DNA of 43,649 bases from an uncultured Methanosarcinales archaeon (GTDB lineage: Archaea; Nanobdellota; Nanobdellia; Woesearchaeales; JACPBV01). The notes beneath the pieces were generated by a model. The model saw nothing but the letters and a program-made list of their open reading frames with translations. It was not told the origin of the DNA and made no database searches. The stretch lies in contig CAZBLF010000006.1 of NCBI GenBank assembly GCA_964492935.1, positions 1 to 43,649 on the forward strand. The letters are read 5' to 3'. Positions 6,767 through 16,293 of this stretch are shown here, one piece after another. The position numbers and the translations under genes are program-made. Each line of letters opens with the position of its first letter. Within the stretch, counting starts at the first letter, position 1.

Positions 6767-7390
6767 GTGAAAAAAGAAATCATTCCAGCAATCATAGTAA
6801 AGAACCAAAAAGACCTAGACGTAGCTCTCGTCAAGGCAAAATTCGCAAAACGAATCCAAATTGACATCATGGACAACAAGTTCGTAAAAAACTCCTCCCT
6901 CCAGTTCAATTTCAAGCTCAAAACAAAAGCAAAAGTTGAAGCACACTTAATGGTACAACATCCATTACAATGGATAAAAAACCATGCCTCCAAAGTAGAC
7001 GTCATCCTCTTCCAGCACGAATCTAAAGATAACAACGAAGAAGTAATCAAGGCCATCAAAGCAGCAAAAAAAACACCCGGAATAGTAATCAATCCAGAAA
7101 CAGAGATACAAGAAATCGAACCAATCCTAAGCAAAGTAAAGGAAGTCCTAGTAATGACCGTCCATCCCGGATTCTATGGCAGCAAGTTCGTCCCAGAAAC
7201 ACTCAAAAAAGTAACCCAACTCAGAAAATTAAAACCCGCTCTAAACATCGAAGTCGACGGCGGAATAACAAACAAAACAATAGCAAGAGCAAGCAAAGCA
7301 GGAGCTAATTTATTTGTCTCCGGCTCTTTCATCATGAAAAGCCCAGAACCCGAAAAGGCTGCGAAAGAACTTGAGAAACTAATCCATTAA
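6767..7390 (+). CDS. rpe: Ribulose-phosphate 3-epimerase
   Basis: IQIDIMD, EAHLMV, VMTVHPGFYG, IEVDGGI and FVSGS motifs. Confidence 0.93.
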   Translation: MKKEIIPAIIVKNQKDLDVALVKAKFAKRIQIDIMDNKFVKNSSLQFNFKLKTKAKVEAHLMVQHPLQWIKNHASKVDVILFQHESKDNNEEVIKAIKAAKKTPGIVINPETEIQEIEPILSKVKEVLVMTVHPGFYGSKFVPETLKKVTQLRKLKPALNIEVDGGITNKTIARASKAGANLFVSGSFIMKSPEPEKAAKELEKLIH

Positions 7391-8604
7391 CTCCCTCTAC
7401 CTCTCAACTCATTACGAATTTCTTGAGGGGTAATCCCCTTCTTCGCCATCAGCAACAAGAGAAAGTACTGCAAATCAGCGATCTCCCAGACTAAATTATC
7501 TCGAGAGGTATAAGAAACCACTTCCTGAGTCTCCTCACTAATTTTCGCCATGATCTCGTTCTCACTAGCCGAAAGAGCAGAAGTATATGAACCCGCGAGC
7601 GGATTTTCAACTCTATCTCGCACCACTGAATACAAATCATCCAGGCAGTATTCTTTATCTCCAAAGCAAGAATACGAAGCAGTGTGGCAAGCAACATTCG
7701 TCTGCCGAACCGTAAACAAGAGGGAATCTCGATCACAATCATAACGTACGTTCAATAATTCCTGGAAATTTCCAGACGTCTCACCCTTCGTCCAAAGCTT
7801 GTTACGAGACCTACTGAAATACGTAGCCCTCCGAGAGGAGAAGGTCTTAAGAAGAGATGCAGAAGAAGAAAAAGCAAACATCAGCACCCTACCAGTATCA
7901 TCCTGAACAATAGTAGGGATCAACCCTTCCGAAAAATCTAAAAGCGAAACAAACGTTGCAGACAAAGAAATCTTTTCTGTATAGAGTGCCATCCCTATCT
8001 GCGAATTACATCCCATCTCCTCCAGGCGCAACACATCCTCCTGCGTGGTAACCCCTCCAGCAACCGTCAATGTATTGGCAGTACTCTTTCGAAGTTGATT
8101 AATCCTCTCCCAATCAACCCCCTGCATCATTCCCTCTTTATCTACATCAGTGAACAAAAATTCAGAGCAATACGGCTCGAGTAATCTCATCCTTTCCTCA
8201 ACCGCAACTCGAGTATCATTCCGCCACCCCTCATCGACCACACTTCCCTTAACAGCATCCACAGCAACAATCACCTTATCCCTAGGGAGCTGCTTCAAGA
8301 AGGAAACCTCTGCCCGAGTACCAATAATGATTTTCGAAGCTCCAGCCCTCAGCAGTTCCTTAGCTCGACCAACACTGCGAATGCCTCCACCTACCCTACA
8401 CGATGCAATGCTACAAAGCTCCTTTACCAGAGCAAGGTTGTCACCTCTACCCAGAGCAGCATCCAAATCAATCACAGCAATCTCGCCATACATCCGAAAT
8501 TCCTCAGCTAACGCTATAACATCCGAGCGTTCCAAAACTTTCTTCTTACCTTGAACGAGTTGAACCGCCTTCCCCTCCATGAGGTCAATACTAGGAATCA
8601 TCAT
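7387..8604 (-). CDS. hisAIE: Trifunctional HisA-HisI-HisE fusion
   Basis: N-terminal [14 protein letters not shown] and VGGGIR (HisA); KGETSGN...DCDRD...ACHT...SCF (HisI); SYT...KISEE...EIADL (HisE). Confidence 0.9.
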
Positions 8605-9356
8605 TGTCGCACCTCCATACTATTACCAATAAGGGCCTTTTTGACATCACCAATCGTACATTCGCCAGTGTGAAACAGAGAGGCAGCCAGAGCAGCATCT
8701 GCCTTTCCAAAAACAAAAACTCCACTAAAACTCTCGAAGGAACCAGCCCCACCTGAAGCAATCACCGGAATACCTACTGCAGTAGCCACCTGCATCGTCA
8801 AATAACTGTCAAATCCCTGACGAGTACCATCTCGGTCCATAGAGGTTAATAATATCTCACCAGCACCAAGTTTCTCAGCTTTCCGCGCCCACGCAACGAC
8901 ATCCTTGCCGGTATTCTCTCGACCACCCTTGACAAAAACCTCCCACCCTACCCCTTTCTGCTTTGCATCAATAGCAACAACAATACACTGCGAACCAAAA
9001 AGAGCAGCAGCCTCACTAATCAAAGATGGATTTTTCACCGCAGCCGTATTCAGTGAAACCTTATCAGCACCAGCCTGTAACAAAGCCCGAATATCCGAAA
9101 TACTAGATATACCTCCCCCGACCGTAAAAGGGATGAACACCTCCCGAGCAACCTTTCGAACAACATCAATCATCGTTTTCCGACCCTCACACGATGCAGT
9201 AATATCCAAAAGAACAAGTTCATCGGCACCCTGCTCGTTATACTTCTTAGCAAGTGCCACCGGATCTCCAGCATCCCGCAAGCTAAAAAAGTTTAGACCT
9301 TTCACAACCTTTCCATCCTTCACATCTAGACAAGGAATGATTCTTTTAGCTAACAT
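8601..9356 (-). CDS. hisF: Imidazole glycerol phosphate synthase cyclase subunit
   Basis: [39 protein letters not shown]. Confidence 0.97.
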
Positions 9357-9931
9357 AGCAACCACCGTTCCAAAAACTGTAGTCCATAGTCACCAGACTT
9401 TTCTGGGTGGAATTGAACTGCAGTAATACTGCCAGATTCAACCGTACACGCAAACGAACAACCATACTCCGAAGTTGCAGTAACAATAGCTGGATCAGCA
9501 GGAACCACATAATATGAGTTAGCAAAATAACCGTATCCCTTCGCCAGCAAGCTGGGAGGGCAAGGCAATATGGTATTCCATCCCATCTGAGGAACCTTTC
9601 CAAGATTGAATTTCTGGACAGAACCCTTCAACACCCCGAGCCCAGAAACTCCTGGACTCTCCTCACTTGTTTCAAACAACGCCTGCATTCCAAGGCAGAT
9701 GCCAAGAAAGGGCTTACCTGAGGATAAATAATCCTTCAATACCTCAATCAACCCCTTTTCACGCAAAGCCTCCATCATCGCTCCGAATGCACCTACGCCA
9801 GGTAATACAACCCTATCTGCGGCACCTATATTCGATGCAGAGGAAGTGATGACCGATTCCACTCCAAGACAATCTAGTGCATTCTTCACACTTTGCACAT
9901 TCCCTATCCCGCAGTCTATTATCGCTATCAT
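9350..9931 (-). CDS. hisH: Imidazole glycerol phosphate synthase glutaminase subunit
   Basis: [32 protein letters not shown]. The ATG overlaps the hisB stop (ATGA). Confidence 0.96.
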
Positions 9932-10527
9932 CGTAAGATCCCCTTTACTCCCGCAATCGCATTCTTCCTCCAAGGAGTATCCCGAAAGCAATCCCTGATG
10001 GCCTCTCCAAGCGCTCTGAACACGGTTTCCCAGATGTGGTGCGGATCATAGCCCTCCAACACCTTAACCTGAATCGTAGCCTGCATTCCCTGTGCCAACC
10101 CTTCAATGAAATTCTGCAAATCACATCCCTTCATATCCTCGACATTCCGAACAAAGGCTTTCTTACCCTTCAAGTCCACGAACGAGTTACTACGACCCTC
10201 AAAACTCACACAAACGACAGATAAAGCTTCATCAAGAGCAGCAACGCTATATCCACTTCCTCGAACCCCCTTGGGAAGTTTCTGTTCAAAAAGTCGAGCA
10301 AGGGCCCTACCTAAAACTAACCCACTATCTTCAGCAATAACGTGCTCAAGTTTGAAGTTAGTCATAGCAACAGCTACATCCATGTTCATGCAAGCTCTCC
10401 ACGCAATAGTTTCAATCATGTGGTTCAAAAATTGCAGTCCCGTATCTATCTTGAACTCTCTCCGCGGCAATTCATCTACCTGAACCACCACCTCTGATTC
10501 CCTTGTTGTTCTTTTTTCTTCTATCAT
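9928..10527 (-). CDS. hisB: Imidazoleglycerol-phosphate dehydratase (divergent)
   Basis: RTTRES, TGLQFLNHM, LDEAL and DPHHIWE motifs; operon context. Confidence 0.9.
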   Translation of the reverse strand: MIEEKRTTRESEVVVQVDELPRREFKIDTGLQFLNHMIETIAWRACMNMDVAVAMTNFKLEHVIAEDSGLVLGRALARLFEQKLPKGVRGSGYSVAALDEALSVVCVSFEGRSNSFVDLKGKKAFVRNVEDMKGCDLQNFIEGLAQGMQATIQVKVLEGYDPHHIWETVFRALGEAIRDCFRDTPWRKNAIAGVKGILR

Positions 10528-11834
10528 TTCAACCTCCGATCGACAGATGCCCTGTGAGCATCCAGTCCCTCTACATCCGCTATCCTATTCACAATCGGTT
10601 GCAACTTCCGCAACCCCATCTTACTCACATCCGAATACTGAACACGCTTCATAAATGTCCAAACTCCAACTGCTGAAGTCCTTTTAGCCCACCCACTCGC
10701 GGGCAGGATGTGATTAACTCCAGACGCATAGTCTCCTAAGGCAACAGGATTATACATCCCCAAAAAAACACTGCCAGCATTTGTTATCTGTTCTAAGACG
10801 AGACGTGGATTCTCAGTAAGAATCTCCAGGTGCTCAGGAGCATACGAGTTAGTGAACTCAACAGCCTCATCCAGCGTATCAACGAGCAGGATACCGCAAT
10901 AATTTTTCAAAGCACTTTGAAGATACTCTTTCCGGGAAAGCAGCTCAAACTGTTTCTTAATCTCCTCTTGAGTAAGGCGAGCAAGCTTCCCTGAAGTCGT
11001 CACCAGCACCGCAGCAGAATCAGGTCCGTGTTCTGCCCGAGCCAGGATGTCGGCAGCACAATACTCAGCTTTTTTCTGAAGATCAACACCTTTAGATAAA
11101 CCCCCATCAGCAATAATGACGGCCTCACTCGGACCTGCAGGCATATCAATAGCAACCCGCTCCTGACAGAGAATCTTTGCAGCAGTCACCCACGGACTTC
11201 CCGGTCCAGCAATCAGTTCAACGGGTTTAACTGTCGAAGTTCCATATGCAAGCGCAGCAATCGCCTGAGCACCGCTCATACGATAGATCTCCGTAACGCC
11301 ACACTCAGCTAACGCAACAAGCGTCTCATACTGATTTCCTTTTGGAGAGATTGCAGCAACAATTCTACCACTACCTGCCAGCACCGCAGGAACTGCTAGT
11401 ATTTGTGCAACCGTGGGAAACGGATTCTTCCCACCAGGAATATACAGTCCAACCGCCTCTATCGCAGTCCATTTCTCTCCAACAACAATGCCCTCGCCAG
11501 TAGTACCTTCCCAATCCTGGATGGCAGATCGCTGCCTCTCGTGGAACCGCTGCGCATACCGAATCTGCTCCCTGATTGCAGAAAGAACCTCTGGAAGAAT
11601 ATTTTCGTACGCTTTCTCAATCTCTTGCGCATCAACACACAGCATACTCTTCTGAAAAGCTGCATCATCAAATTTCTGTGCATAGCGAACCAAAGCTGAA
11701 TCTCCCTCAGCCCTTACCTCTTGAATGATAGCTCTAACCGCTACCTTAACCTCCTCCAACTCATTCTGCGACCGCAGCAACAGACGTCGAAATGCCCGAC
11801 TCTTCTTATCCCTCATCGAATACCTTCTTATCAT
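10524..11834 (-). CDS. hisD: Histidinol dehydrogenase
   Basis: VGLYIPGG, GAQAIAALAYGT, DMPAGPSE, AEH, APEHL, GDYASGVNHILP, EGLDAH. Confidence 0.95.
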   Translation of the reverse strand: MIRRYSMRDKKSRAFRRLLLRSQNELEEVKVAVRAIIQEVRAEGDSALVRYAQKFDDAAFQKSMLCVDAQEIEKAYENILPEVLSAIREQIRYAQRFHERQRSAIQDWEGTTGEGIVVGEKWTAIEAVGLYIPGGKNPFPTVAQILAVPAVLAGSGRIVAAISPKGNQYETLVALAECGVTEIYRMSGAQAIAALAYGTSTVKPVELIAGPGSPWVTAAKILCQERVAIDMPAGPSEAVIIADGGLSKGVDLQKKAEYCAADILARAEHGPDSAAVLVTTSGKLARLTQEEIKKQFELLSRKEYLQSALKNYCGILLVDTLDEAVEFTNSYAPEHLEILTENPRLVLEQITNAGSVFLGMYNPVALGDYASGVNHILPASGWAKRTSAVGVWTFMKRVQYSDVSKMGLRKLQPIVNRIADVEGLDAHRASVDRRLK

Positions 11835-13079
11835 TTTATTACCTCCAAAAAATCCAGAATTTGGTTTACATCCTCAAGCACCTGTTCGGCACCCTCCAAC
11901 TTAAACGTGAAAGTAGAACTTTTGACCCCTACAAAGCGAACATTGGCAGCTTTCGCCATCATCGCATCAGCAGGCAAATCTCCAACATAGACTATCTCTT
12001 GCAATCCCAGCTTTTTCCGAGCGAGAGTCAATCCATCAGCACAGGGCTTCTGCCTATCCTCAGAAAGATCATCCCGAGTAATAAGGACCTCAAAATAGTC
12101 AAGCAATTTATATTTTTTTAAGGTAGAAACTGCCTCATCTCGTGGTCTACCCGTAACAATTCCCAATGAAGCTCTAGAAGAGAGACTTTGCAAAGTACCT
12201 TCATTAACAAGCAAACGCTCTTTATTCCAGATCTCCCGAGAGAGATAACGCTGAAACACTTCCACTATTTCCTCAAAATCCACCTCAACACCCTCTCTCC
12301 GCAGCAGTTCCCTACAACAATCCCACTCGTTATTGAATCCACTTTGCTTCACGGCAGCAAACTCCAGTAATGCAACAGGACGCTTCAGAAATTGACCAAC
12401 GGTTTTGCAAGATGCTACTCCATACGATTCGCTACTATCAACCAACACCCCATCCATATCAAAAACAATTGATTGCCGAACGGGAGAACCAAGAATAACA
12501 AAATCACTTTGAGCGATGAGGTCATACACTTTCAATCCACATTGTTCTAGCGTTTTTCCTGTATAGACGATGTCGATGACCAAATCAGCAATGCCTTCCT
12601 TACAACTTACCTCCACGCACCCGTTGACATAAATTTTCTTGAAAGTATACCCATTCTGCTCAAGAAAGTTAAGATACGATTTTCCAAGATTTTTATATTT
12701 AGCCGCAATACAAACAGTAAGGCGTTTCGGAAGATCTTCAAGATTCCTATCTTTAGGACCTAATAAACAAAGAGCAGGCTTACCATATTTTGCCCGAGCA
12801 TCATTCCAAGGAATCCTAGCAAGAATGGTAGGGGGAACAGTACTCTGTTGAGCGCAATATTCATCATACAAATCCTCTCCCGTTAACCCAATGACCTTCT
12901 TTCCCTTACCCTGAAACTCTTCTACCCAAAACGGGACATCCTCCCCTCTCACCTCAAGTATTTTTGAGGAGTCAACATTCTGAAGACTAGGAAGTGCTTT
13001 TTCCCTATATTCTTGCAGTCCGCCATTCTTCGGAACGACAATGAATACAATCCTTAGCGTTAACTAACGAGTCTACCAT
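11831..13079 (-). CDS. hisG: Short-form ATP phosphoribosyltransferase fused to a HAD phosphatase; predicted to need a +1 frameshift at 13043 (about 415 aa)
   Basis: Frame is open from 13063 to 11831 with IVVPKNG, VRGEDVP, GLTGEDL, NGCVEV, DIVYTGKTL, then FDMDGVLVD...KP...VGD (HAD). No in-frame ATG/GTG/TTG precedes the conserved N-terminal strand. The RBS-preceded ATG at 13079 is in another frame. Confidence 0.85.
13005..13079 (-). promoter_or_regulatory. Leader ORF 2 (MVDSLVNAKDCIHCRSEEWRTARI*) with a single His codon
   Basis: GGAGGTGA RBS (13091-13084) 4 nt before the ATG; TGT ATT CAT T at 13049-13040. Confidence 0.75.
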
Positions 13080-13105
13080 AAACTCACCTCCAAGGGAACA
13101 GAAAG

Positions 13106-13177
13106 GGCGGTAGCCGAGAATCGAACTCGGACCGCAAGGCCCACAACCTTGTATTCTACCAGTAAACTACTACCGCC
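13106..13177 (-). tRNA. tRNA-His(GTG), intronless, G-1 encoded
   Basis: G GCGGTAG TA GTTT ACTGGTA GAAT A CAAGG TTGTGGG CCTTG CGGT CCGAG TTCGATT CTCGG CTACCGC C, with G-1:C73. Confidence 0.95.
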
Positions 13178-13244
13178 ATAAGAAATATCAACAAAAGAAC
13201 TCAAACAAGAACAAAAACTTAAACTACTAAAATTAGACTCACAA

Positions 13245-13307
13245 CTACCAAGAATGAATACAACCAGCGTCGGTGACGCCTTTGTCCTCAAGTAATACGG
13301 TGTTCAT
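13245..13307 (-). promoter_or_regulatory. Leader ORF 1 (MNTVLLEDKGVTDAGCIHSW*), probably leaderless, with a single His codon
   Basis: ATG lies 30 nt from the start of a TATA box; TGT ATT CAT T at 13262-13253. Confidence 0.7.
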
Positions 13308-13325
13308 AAAAAAGAAGAAGTGCAA

Positions 13326-13349
13326 CTTTATATTTAAGTCTTTTCATTC
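13326..13349 (-). promoter_or_regulatory. BRE/TATA promoter for the leader-tRNA-His-his operon
   Basis: Minus strand GAATGAAAAGAC-TTAAATATAAAG: a purine-rich BRE followed by a TATA box. Confidence 0.65.
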
Positions 13350-13370
13350 ATCAAGAGGAAGTAGCAAAAA

Positions 13371-14246
13371 TCATTCAACAATAGCCTTTATCTCAGAACC
13401 AAACATTTCTGAAGCACGCTTAACATACTCCTCAATATTATCAGTAAAGTACGGCGGATGCTGTTTCTGAATATTACCAATAACGAAATAACCAATTGCC
13501 ATCAGGGCAGCATACGAAGCATCAGCAGGCAACGGAATGTCCAAGCGATGCTTCCCAAACTGTGAATTCGAATCACCAAACGAAATAAATAATTCTTTGT
13601 CATTAGGAACAACCGTTTTAGCATGTTTTGTCTGATCCACAGTAAAAACACGCCCATTCACAACGGACCCAAACAACTCATCGAATTTAGTCAGCAACAT
13701 CTCTCGCATCGCATCAAAACGAGAAGGAACAATCAAATAGAACGCAGAATATGAAGCAAAGTCCTTAGGTATCAAAGGAACAACCTCTTTTTTGATAAAC
13801 TCCAAAATCGCAGCAGGATCTTCTTTTGTTTTTCCCAAAATCATGCTCATATACGTCGAAGTATTGTAGGTATACGGCTCAGCCTGTTTCGGAAACACAA
13901 ACGTCTCATGCACGAGCGTTTTAGCAGGCGCATCTGTATTACACGTCAACAGCCGAGTCTCAATTTTCAATCGCTTCAATTCCTTAGCAATAATCGGAGC
14001 ATGTTTAGCACCCGATGCCGAAATCAAGATAGCACCATCCACAATATCCAAATTATCCCGATACGTACCCTCATCCGCAAACACCGCATCAGAACCCTCC
14101 ATAATGATTCTACCCGTAGCAGCAGCATTACCTGAACCAACAACAAGAGGACGATCATAGGAACCAAGATGCAATTCAGGAATACCTTCAGCAATAAACA
14201 GCTGCAATGCAGATAGTACACATTCATCCAGACCAATAATCTTCAT
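13371..14246 (-). CDS. SIS-domain (sugar isomerase-like) protein
   Basis: VVGSGNAAATG and ILISASGAK resemble SIS phosphosugar-binding loops; substrate cannot be determined. Confidence 0.55.
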   Translation of the reverse strand: MKIIGLDECVLSALQLFIAEGIPELHLGSYDRPLVVGSGNAAATGRIIMEGSDAVFADEGTYRDNLDIVDGAILISASGAKHAPIIAKELKRLKIETRLLTCNTDAPAKTLVHETFVFPKQAEPYTYNTSTYMSMILGKTKEDPAAILEFIKKEVVPLIPKDFASYSAFYLIVPSRFDAMREMLLTKFDELFGSVVNGRVFTVDQTKHAKTVVPNDKELFISFGDSNSQFGKHRLDIPLPADASYAALMAIGYFVIGNIQKQHPPYFTDNIEEYVKRASEMFGSEIKAIVE

Positions 14247-14303: not shown

Positions 14304-15203
14304 TTATGGCTTAACATTAAGAGTAAATTCCTGTGTAATGCCTGAAGCAGTGCCATCATAATACATCTCAATCTGACACAAGTGATTACCAGAGGAAATA
14401 TCATCTGGCAACGTAACAATGGCAGCGAACTGTTCATCATCCGCAACCGCAATGGGCTTAGCATTTACCTGTACCGTTAAATCTCCAACCTGTTGCGTAA
14501 CGGGCTGAATCGAGCTATCACCATCAGAACCACTTCCCACCCCAACACCACTAGGACTATCGACACATTCAGAAAGATCACTGCCCACAGCACCATATCC
14601 ATCGAAATCATCATCAGAGCAGGCAGTGCAAGGAGTAGCTAAAACCGCTCCAGAACTACTCTTGAGCTGAATATTATCCACATACACTTTCGCCCATCCA
14701 CCTGTCTGAGCATTTTCTATCAGGATACTTACCTCAACCCCCTCATACCCAGACAATCCTAGACAACCAACTGAGGCGAAAGTATCGGAATCATGACCAT
14801 GTACATTTGTACAAAGAATCGAGGCATCGCTTGAACGTATGACTGATAGGTGAGCATTATCAGCCCCCCCAGCTCGTAAAAAGGTAATGCGATCAATTCC
14901 TACCGGGAGGGTAAATAGGGGGCTAATCATAGAACCGGTCGTCCCATCACAACCTACTTTGATATATTTCGTTCCATCAATAGCGTTTGCAGCTCTACTA
15001 CTATCTCCACAACGAATATCATTCCCCTCTACAACGCCAGCATCACCTGAGCAAGTCCACCCCGGAGGACAGTTGAGGGGATCGACGTCTTCAAAACTGG
15101 TGAAGGTGACTTCTAAAGGGCAATCACAAAAAGATCCTACACAGGGACTAGCAGAAACCGAAGGCAGAACTACGAGCACAATCACTATCGCCCACCATTT
15201 CAT
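14304..15203 (-). CDS. Secreted Cys-rich beta-domain protein
   Basis: MKWWAIVIVLVVLPSVSA signal peptide at ATG 15203; DDDFDGYG acidic motif. Confidence 0.6.
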   Translation of the reverse strand: MKWWAIVIVLVVLPSVSASPCVGSFCDCPLEVTFTSFEDVDPLNCPPGWTCSGDAGVVEGNDIRCGDSSRAANAIDGTKYIKVGCDGTTGSMISPLFTLPVGIDRITFLRAGGADNAHLSVIRSSDASILCTNVHGHDSDTFASVGCLGLSGYEGVEVSILIENAQTGGWAKVYVDNIQLKSSSGAVLATPCTACSDDDFDGYGAVGSDLSECVDSPSGVGVGSGSDGDSSIQPVTQQVGDLTVQVNAKPIAVADDEQFAAIVTLPDDISSGNHLCQIEMYYDGTASGITQEFTLNVKP

Positions 15204-15556
15204 GAACATGTAATCACCGGATACGCCTGATCCCAATCCTCATTAGTGGGATTTCGAGCACCCACATCAACTCTAAACGTACTTCCTGCCTCCGCAATCA
15301 CAACCTCCTTAGAAATGACATACTCCCAAAATGAATCCAGCTGAAGTTGGGGGTATTCTGCCTAAGATTTTATAACCAAGGGGTCACTAGGAAGGGGACT
15401 CAACAAAGGGCCACGGGGAGATGCCTGCTCCTCAAACTGAGTTGCCGATTTAGAAAAATTACCTCGAATGAATCCAATCAGCAATCCTAAAATAACAATA
15501 GCTAAAATAATGGTAACAATCGCTGTCGTTGATAGCGTCATAGCTCCTTTCTTCAT
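15200..15556 (-). pseudogene. Class III signal-peptide (pilin-like) gene interrupted by an in-frame TAG (15364-15362)
   Basis: MKKGA/MTLSTTAIVTIILAIVILGL N-terminus. The same frame continues 53 codons past the TAG (...VISKEVVIAEAGSTFRVDVGARNPTNEDWDQAYPVITCS*). Confidence 0.5.
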
Positions 15557-16293
15557 GTGTGCACCTTGTGCATTTTTTGTTCATGTGCACTATGAAGAGT
15601 AGCAACAATCACATGTTCTTTCCAACCGCGATCCATCAGTGCCGGAACGACTGACTGCATCAGCTGCTCACGAGTATATCCTTTCTGTAACAACATCGAA
15701 AAATATTGCCGCAATCGCAGCTGAGGATCATGTAATCTCCTCTTTCGAGAAACCTCTGCAATCCCCATCCCGACAATCCCCAATGCCCCCACGCCTACGA
15801 ACACCATCACAATAAAAGAGAGCGGACTTTCCGGAGCAGGTTGTTCAACCACAAGCACCTCTTCCTGCAACGGAGTCTTCAACACATCCACTCGACGTTG
15901 TATCCCTGCAAGCATCCCTTGGTGTATCTGCGCCCGATCCGAGATTACGAATAACTTCAAACCCCGAAAAGTATCTATGCGCAACAAAGAAGGCTTTGTA
16001 AAATTCCACACAGCAAGAAAGGGAGAATGAGGACTACTCACCACGATAGTCTTATCAAAACGAGGAACGATCGAGGGATCCAAAAACAACACCTTTACAC
16101 CCAACGACTTCTGCAACTCCAAAGCAGCGCTACGAATCTCATCTTCAAGCGTCAAGTCCACAAGCATACTATACTCAGAAGGTTCGTCCAGCACCATCGA
16201 CAGGAAATCATCCAATCCATCAGCATGCACAGTAATAGCACCAAGAACCAATATCAGAAAAACTACCAAAAAACCGCGGCCTAAACCCCCCAT
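15553..16293 (-). CDS. Hypothetical membrane-anchored protein
   Basis: N-terminal signal peptide, one TM helix near residue 165, short helical C-terminal domain. Confidence 0.65.
   Translation of the reverse strand: MGGLGRGFLVVFLILVLGAITVHADGLDDFLSMVLDEPSEYSMLVDLTLEDEIRSAALELQKSLGVKVLFLDPSIVPRFDKTIVVSSPHSPFLAVWNFTKPSLLRIDTFRGLKLFVISDRAQIHQGMLAGIQRRVDVLKTPLQEEVLVVEQPAPESPLSFIVMVFVGVGALGIVGMGIAEVSRKRRLHDPQLRLRQYFSMLLQKGYTREQLMQSVVPALMDRGWKEHVIVATLHSAHEQKMHKVHT

Follow-up and report, generated by a model that had tools for sequence, protein, structure and literature searches.

How is a histidine biosynthesis operon translated when its first gene has no start codon in its own reading frame? This question is raised by a 43,649-nucleotide (nt) stretch of DNA (positions 1 to 43,649 of contig CAZBLF010000006.1, assembly GCA_964492935.1; hereafter the window), which derives from an archaeon filed as an uncultured member of the Methanosarcinales and placed by GTDB in the Woesearchaeales. 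On its minus strand, the frame of hisG (frame B) is shut upstream by two TAG codons (13075-13073 and 13066-13064), reads LTLRIVFIVVPKNGGL... from 13063 downward, and has its first ATG, GTG or TTG at GTG 12952. This codon lies 30 codons past ATT 13042 and past the conserved first strand of the protein, and it is where the open reading frame (ORF) listing begins hisG. A Shine-Dalgarno (SD) sequence, GGAGGTGA, fully complementary to the 16S 3' end of the same genome (...GGATCACCTCCT), serves an ATG at 13079 in a different frame (frame A), and passing from frame A to frame B requires a +1 step. A sequence-only reading of the window had described hisG as lacking an in-frame start, with its SD and ATG one frame off, and all the minus-strand coordinates of that description hold. 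Here we propose that hisG is probably expressed through a programmed +1 ribosomal frameshift that would act as a histidine sensor.

We observed the same letters at this junction in independent assemblies. Contigs from four runs of four studies, chosen among the runs not marked as possible sources, cover positions 13018-13112 with 0 differing letters and 0 gaps, in a comparison of assembled contigs rather than raw reads, which rare variants could escape. A 701-base stretch is present in runs of 16 studies, with no RNA run among those listed. Relatives of the locus were taken from genome and metagenome searches, a scan with the single protein having given one distant bacterial locus at 26% identity. 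Among 41 close genomes, two hold close HisG homologues (G004 and G039). Among 401 sampled genomes of the order, 35 have HisG, and the 24 loci that include the N-terminus comprise 18 with the shifted layout and 6 in a single frame. A further 80 loci came from metagenome contigs scanned with a profile. The resulting 106 loci with an N-terminus were reduced to 89 distinct ones by merging those with >95% identity over the first 360 nt, and two (L046 and L123) were removed from the shifted class as false pattern matches that are truly in frame. None of the conclusions drawn here depends on the unpublished genomes G005 and G013.

A shared junction, made up of a short leader ORF, an NUU codon (AUU, CUU or GUU), a His codon (CAU or CAC) and hisG in the +1 frame, is found in 58/89 loci, of which 51 have their own frame-A ATG and 7 do not. 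Because it recurs in so many distinct related loci, the junction is beyond chance. The hisG gene is in a single frame in 28 loci, and three are of other kinds: in L048 and L119 the site lies farther upstream and its +1 frame continues into hisG, and in L122 hisG directly follows an intron-bearing tRNA (…CGCCC TTCCCC ATT GTT CTA ATT CCT). An SD-like sequence stands 4-16 nt before the frame-A ATG in 42/51 relatives. Shifted loci occur in 22 genomes with 17 coded GTDB family labels (at least 17 families) from two orders; in the phylum-level sample they are present in a second order of the same class (G465 and G477) and also in G550 and G368. One of the two close homologues, G039, belongs to another family and has the arrangement of the window, with MMEKIDSSDCLHCNP and a stop in one frame and IVIPKNTGL in the +1 frame.

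The junction itself varies little. Across the 58 proximal sites, the codon that would occupy the ribosomal P site is ATT in 40, CTT in 14 and GTT in 4, the A-site codon is CAT in 53 and CAC in 5, and the +1 codon is ATT or ATC in 52, ACT in 5 and ATG in one. At the five CAC sites the frame-A His is retained while frame B changes from Ile to Thr. The triplet that would encode Phe in frame B is TTC in 58/58, and TTT makes up 55% of Phe codons genome-wide. The frames, their conservation and the invariance of the His codon are established. The position of the shift is bounded on one side by L061, where the frame-B TAG ends directly before TTC, and on the other by L056 and L115, where the frame-A stop comes 2-3 codons after His. 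In a motif-free frame test whose criteria proved overly strict, 18 loci fell outside the '+1 only' outcome; each of these has either tandem sites or a frame-A ATG positioned 3' of the frame-B stop, and no locus required a −1 shift. A His codon lies in 32 of 34 overlap windows, the other two being one-codon windows, an artefact of the definition.

The predicted trans-frame product (P0001) is the window read with a single four-letter step, ATTC=I. Aligned with single-frame HisG proteins, it shows no gap over the junction (AKDCIIVVPNN in L003, KDCTVILPKN in L023, QDYIIVVPKN in L030), and the first 12 residues of the frame-A leader are homologous to the N-termini of unshifted HisG. The gap-free alignment, together with NUU-CAY in 58/89 loci, supports the suggestion that a +1 shift at the His codon joins MVDSLVNAKDCI to IVVPKNGGL. 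Since no unshifted aligned protein has His at this position, slippage of the P-site tRNA fits better than incorporation of His.

The sequence preceding the His codon is also conserved. Over 15 nt it follows G-[G/C/T]-T-G-R-T-T-G-T-[A/C]-T-T, both in the proximal sites and in the set of upstream sites described below. T is kept at three codon third positions irrespective of the amino acid (GCT, GTT, AGT, GGT), which indicates a constraint on the RNA. At -10 to -6, the element U-G-R-U-U is maintained at synonymous positions too and could pair with the 16S tail 3'-ACUAG-5'. In the proximal sites the upstream SD-like element is usually GGUGAU or AGUGAU, with AAGGA in the window, and it may stimulate shifting on archaeal ribosomes. 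The E-site codon is UGU, UGC or UAU in 50/58 sites.

From these patterns we infer that the shift occurs, that it responds to His-tRNA, and that reading through the neighbouring tRNA gene, described below, has a role. Ribosomes would initiate at ATG 13079 behind a perfect SD and translate 12 codons, after which tRNA-Ile would sit in the P site on AUU 13046-13044, with the A site over the His codon CAU 13043-13041. With plentiful His-tRNA(His), CAU would be decoded and the zero frame kept, and translation would stop 12 codons on without producing HisG. When charged tRNA-His is scarce, the A site would stay empty and the P-site tRNA would re-pair from AUU to UUC, exchanging a G:U wobble for a G:C pair. 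Anticodon rules suggest such re-pairing to UUC for tRNAs on NUU codons, and His codons suit the design because their initial C completes UUC. After the shift, AUU GUC GUU CCG... would be read to give a HisG-HAD fusion, and overlapping gene junctions could carry translation onward. The direction of control is sensible, with shortage leading to synthesis of the enzymes.

The cassette motif occurs twice in this genome, and the second copy, upstream of the tRNA-His gene, goes beyond the account of the sequence-only reading. It ends a mini-ORF (uORF1) preceded by a TATA-like box, which would be the promoter of a leaderless transcript starting at or near the mini-ORF ATG 13307. After site 1 the +1 frame is open for 60 codons, and the +2 control frame for 11. 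The +1 ORF ends at TAG 13075-13073, overlapping the leader ATG 13079 (ATGgTAG). The tRNA-His gene that it crosses is the only one found by ARAGORN in the 57 contigs. Because there is no room for a separate promoter between them, tRNA-His and hisG are presumably co-transcribed. Ribosomes that shift on the leaderless mini-ORF (13307-13245) would then traverse the tRNA-His portion of the co-transcript and halt on the leader ATG, and the two cassettes in series would form a two-step gate.

We observed related arrangements in many of the other loci. In 47/89 distinct loci a tRNA gene is located at most 400 nt upstream of hisG, and in both G004 and G039 a tRNA-His gene is immediately upstream, that of G004 containing an intron. 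Mini-ORFs of the form [A/V][G/D][C/Y][I/L]-H plus 1-8 codons are present at 70 places in the 89 loci, compared to 25 on the reverse-complement control, and they also occur in loci with single-frame hisG. Of these, 63 upstream sites were kept and 7 were dropped for missing context. A TATA-like hexamer stands 30-31 nt before the mini-ORF ATG at 36/63 upstream sites and 20-42 nt before it at 56/63, a spacing that suggests leaderless transcripts in the relatives. Beyond 59 of the 63 sites, the +1 frame outruns the +2 frame (median 33 vs 8 codons; Wilcoxon p 8e-11, a significance that the relatedness of the loci overstates). In the 34 loci with a tRNA gene between site and hisG, the +1 frame extends past the 3' end of the tRNA in 17 and the +2 frame in 0. 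The +1 frames of relatives stop on or within a few codons of the leader start (ATGA, TGATG, ATGTTAA, ATGcTGA) or run into the leader.

Among the 17 loci whose +1 ORF ends before the tRNA, 15 have an ORF of ~33 codons. This ORF is entered from the mini-ORF MKRVDCI-H and ends in 2-4 His codons (...IHHH or ...MHHHC, then a stop) in all members listed; the conserved TTCTTGCATTGTTTAGTTTAAA and a T-rich stretch follow, before tRNA-His (family loci L033-L036, L069, L081, L084-L087, L093, L096, L097, L101, L104, L108 and L116). It looks like a classical His-run leader that could be reached only via a frameshift. The second leader is without a start codon in six loci (L057, L065, L070, L075, L028 of G330 and L135 of G477), and in these the +1 frame of the upstream mini-ORF leads to a second NUU-CAY, from which a second +1 step leads to HisG. 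The two-shift path of L028 runs through the tRNA-His gene, and three shift sites are present in L113 and L139. Without translation of the +1 frames, the tandem gates and His-run ORFs would be difficult to account for.

Two further observations concern the tRNA. In L029 (G114, ~1400-1430) a mini-ORF, MIKAINEETVQERTDCI-HC followed by a stop, precedes the hisG leader by only ~90 nt, and no tRNA gene intervenes; since this locus has the cassette pair without an intervening tRNA, the tRNA is not obligatory to the system. Many of the relatives' tRNA-His genes carry introns (genes of 90-120 nt; L003 at 372-463, L027, L033, L035, L036). ARAGORN mislabels some of the intron-bearing genes as Cys, Tyr or Ser, and the gene in L139 seems to hold two insertions.

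More tentatively, the leader might be a cascade of two (in relatives up to three) His-gated +1 shifts on one leaderless transcript, which would be partitioned between tRNA-His when histidine is plentiful and the enzymes when it is scarce; we regard this as possible and hold it with less confidence than the frameshift itself. Only ribosomes that shift at the first gate would read through tRNA-His, stopping its folding and excision. The same read-through would deliver them to the hisG leader and its second gate, and serial gates would give a steep, switch-like response. Such a cascade would be the first case in nature of a frameshift switch that senses an amino acid, and an archaeal equivalent of attenuation. 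The features of the locus are collected in Table 1.

Table 1. Features of the his leader and operon in the window.
Feature	Position	Strand	Details
TATA-like box TTAAATATAAAG	13326..13337	minus	starts 30 nt upstream of the mini-ORF ATG
Mini-ORF uORF1, MNTVLLEDKGVTDAGCIHSW	13245..13307	minus	ATG 13307, stop 13247-13245; GCT GGT TGT ATT CAT near the end
Candidate shift site 1	13253..13259	minus	ATT 13259-13257, CAT 13256-13254, T 13253
+1 ORF entered at site 1	13073..13255	minus	crosses a T-rich spacer and the entire tRNA-His gene
tRNA-His, anticodon GTG	13105..13176	minus	ARAGORN cloverleaf; Rfam tRNA 58.9 bits; 13 nt upstream of the hisG SD
SD sequence GGAGGTGA	13084..13091	minus	serves ATG 13079, four bases upstream of the ATG
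hisG leader ORF, zero frame (frame A), MVDSLVNAKDCIHCRSEEWRTARI	13005..13079	minus	stop TAG 13007-13005
Candidate shift site 2	13040..13046	minus	ATT 13046-13044 (P site), CAT 13043-13041 (A site), +1 codon ATT 13042-13040
hisG (short form) fused to a HAD-type phosphatase domain, frame B	11831..13042	minus	403 codons and stop
Rest of operon, hisD to hisA-hisIE	7387..11834	minus	NCBIfam matches; every stop/start overlapping
hisD	11834-10524	minus	NCBIfam match
hisB	10527-9928	minus	NCBIfam match
hisH	9931-9350	minus	NCBIfam match
hisF	9356-8601	minus	NCBIfam match
hisA-hisIE	8604-7387	minus	NCBIfam match

What the frame architecture proves is the need for a shift, not its regulation. The +1 shift at NUU-CAY could be constitutive, a fixed-ratio or 'corrective' recoding that keeps HisG at a low level without any response to histidine. 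UUU_Y-type and CUU_N sites are intrinsically shift-prone, and a 2016 review by Atkins and colleagues notes that no natural case of sensing starvation was known (PMC5009743). We nevertheless consider constitutive shifting unlikely. The A-site codon is His in 58/58 proximal and 63/63 upstream sites, counts that are partly circular in that the search pattern contained His; the system is found only ahead of his genes and tRNA-His; the CAC variants keep His at the expense of a change in frame B; one family's +1 ORF ends in His runs; and tandem gates are ill-suited to a fixed ratio. A loose cassette pattern with other A-site codons gave 128 matches in this genome, apparently by chance. Five of these have TGG, none of them near the trp operon, and the region upstream of trpE (contig C15, ~7650-7710) contains no such mini-ORF. 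In that region, from a TATA-like box to the trpE GTG, we observed a frame reading H W V V V W, which contains two Trp codons and no ATG and may be due to chance. An Rfam search over 12800-13500 at E up to 1 returned the tRNA plus two chance-level matches, with neither the leader RF00514 nor the T-box RF00230.

It is also improbable that no frameshift takes place and that HisG starts in frame B at a non-ATG codon, with the His mini-ORF regulating by occlusion or reinitiation. Such a start is suggested by the GTG (37), TTG (3) or ATG (2) found three codons before TTC in 42/58 proximal sites and by the almost invariant T at -10 and G at -9, and in the window AAGGA (13055-13051) lies 8 nt ahead of ATT 13042. 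Against this, the window has AGG at the position of the start-like codon, 11/58 loci are without any frame-B ATG, GTG or TTG, and the corresponding codon of the upstream sites is CTG in 30/63. SD-like sequences precede only 3/47 of the frame-B candidates, compared to 42/51 of the frame-A ATGs, and 5 loci have ACT as the counterpart of ATT 13042. Such a start would be masked by a ribosome stalled at His, so that starvation would lower HisG, which is the wrong sign. The zero-frame stop lies anywhere from 2 to 71 codons away, a poor fit to reinitiation. Initiation at ATT 13051 or GTG 12952, which the sequence-only reading had named as findings that would speak against a shift, is unsupported in the relatives, as is initiation at ATT 13042: the frame-B homologues of the window's ATT codons are often CTG, ACT or absent, and a start at GTG 12952 would delete the first strand.

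Quadruplet reading of CAUU by tRNA-His is disfavoured, since unshifted homologues have I, T or V at this position rather than H, and the fourth base varies (T, C, G). Transcriptional slippage is ruled out, there being no homopolymer run at TGTATTCATTG. Reading of TAG as a sense codon is likewise ruled out, because ATG 13079 is out of the hisG frame whatever TAG means; with TAG as sense, the only upstream start candidate in frame B is a GTG inside the SD. That hisG is a pseudogene, or its additional base a sequencing or assembly error, is hardly credible: a lone additional base close to a gene start is the commonest type of artefact and the genome is a metagenome-derived assembly in 57 contigs at 84.8% completeness, but the contigs from four independent studies are identical at the site, the stretch is present in runs of 16 studies, and 58/89 loci have the same junction between diverged flanks (47-63% protein identity) with the downstream frames intact. 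To the extent that contigs can show it, the consensus error that had been named as a possible refutation is excluded by these independent assemblies and by conservation of the junction.

Several observations nevertheless weigh against a histidine-sensing frameshift. The gate is dispensable, because 28/89 loci have hisG in a single frame, including G004 of the window organism's own family, where the protein begins METPALAKDCIIVVPNN. L122 has no start codon in any frame and no cassette, and its TATA-like box lies immediately before the tRNA. In the 42 proximal loci with a frame-B GTG, TTG or ATG three codons before TTC, an independent frame-B start is possible, though not in the window because its codon is AGG, and the near-invariant T and G could reflect a start of this kind. 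The SD-like element is spaced much as at an initiation site, and a strained spacing of the prfB kind is not evident. Moving tRNA-Ile(GAU) from AUU to UUC would create a U:U mismatch at the first position. One His codon is a weak sensor beside the seven in enterobacterial hisL. Finally, the loci are related by descent, so that counts and p-values overstate their independence. Even so, we hold the histidine-sensing +1 shift to be the probable mode of hisG expression.

The genes under this putative control form a compact operon in a small genome (1.15 Mb), whose rRNA is archaeal (RF01959, 1445 bits), an identity to which the intron-bearing tRNA-His genes of relatives also point. HisG matches Pfam PF01634 at 71.6 bits (cut-off 25.5) and TIGR00070 at 70.2 bits, slightly below the cut-off of 75.75, and the HAD domain at the C-terminus of the fusion matches HAD_2 (PF13419) at 74.8 bits. 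The stop/start overlap of the downstream his genes is confirmed, with ATGA at the junctions hisG/hisD, hisD/hisB, hisB/hisH and hisF/hisA-IE and ATGTTAG at hisH/hisF. The proposal that translational coupling hands control to the whole operon is made plausible by these overlaps; each downstream junction also has its own GGAGG, which leaves coupling across the operon as a possibility.

The HAD domain (11831-12480, minus strand) is fused to HisG in the window; its homologue in G039 and G004 forms the C-terminal part of HisC, encoded by the gene next after hisG (L002 2084-3577 and L003 1002-2597, respectively). The window operon contains no hisC, and no above-cut-off match was found in the 84.8%-complete genome (best 107 bits vs 277). 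The hisG-HAD fusion may have been created by a deletion. Upstream of the his leader, three minus-strand ORFs (13371-14246, 14304-15236 and 15553-16293; 291, 310 and 246 amino acids) matched no NCBIfam model at E up to 1e-5.

If the proposed mechanism is correct, a single codon pair with a short context would be enough as an amino-acid sensor, and could provide a compact, portable part for synthetic regulation. It would explain the truncation or omission of hisG by gene callers in these genomes, where a missed hisG would bias the metabolic reconstruction of small-genome archaea toward histidine auxotrophy. The tRNA gene inside a translated frame would also raise the question of competition between translation and tRNA processing. 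Full-text literature searches turned up no description of frameshifting in hisG, nor of any frameshift that senses histidine. We know of no archaeal counterpart of leader-peptide attenuation or T-boxes described for amino-acid operons. Hungry-codon frameshifting has reportedly been a laboratory phenomenon since Gallant's work. According to the recoding review, no natural, useful trans-frame product from hungry-codon shifting under starvation is known (PMC5009743).

Comparison with known systems places the his leader beside prfB in several respects. Each begins with a brief zero-frame ORF that has an ordinary start codon, and each encodes its functional protein in the +1 frame; both have an NUU codon in the P site (CUU_U in prfB), whose tRNA re-pairs one base forward in prfB and would do so here; in both, the rate of decoding at the A-site codon would report the level of the pathway product; and both have a weakly pairing E-site codon, with an internal SD upstream in prfB and a candidate SD-like element here. 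In prfB the internal SD stands at a spacing of 3 nt. In contrast to prfB, where the A-site codon is a stop and the sensed molecule is a release factor, the codon here is a sense codon (His) and the sensed molecule would be an aminoacyl-tRNA, in an archaeal host that has no RF2. The SD-like element here would pair with another part of the 16S tail at another spacing, and the cassette is present two or three times in tandem, one copy being followed by a tRNA gene inside the +1 frame. The review describes the prfB site as CUU_U with UGA in the A site and an internal SD as stimulator, and reports that weaker E-site pairing favours +1 shifting (PMC5009743).

In the yeast Ty1, ABP140 and EST3 systems, as presented in that source, a P-site CUU slips +1 while a slow sense codon (a 'hungry codon') occupies the A site, and the Ty1 site is CUU_AGG_C with a scarce tRNA (PMC5009743). 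This resembles the proposed shift in hisG, but the yeast sites sense no amino-acid supply and control no synthesis of the amino acid concerned. Antizyme (OAZ) offers a frameshift that is both sensor and effector of a metabolic feedback, as outlined there (PMC5009743), and differs in sensing polyamines, in shifting at a stop codon with a 3' pseudoknot, and in being eukaryotic. Finally, the hisL attenuator (RF00514) and T-boxes follow a similar logic: upstream of hisG, the charging of His-tRNA is reported by a ribosome in translation or by a tRNA. In one family of our loci the +1 ORF closes with a run of 2-4 His codons, after which comes a T-rich stretch. The window differs from hisL in having a single His codon in each of its two leaders and no His run, and from both systems in its output, which would be a change of reading frame rather than a choice between terminator and antiterminator.

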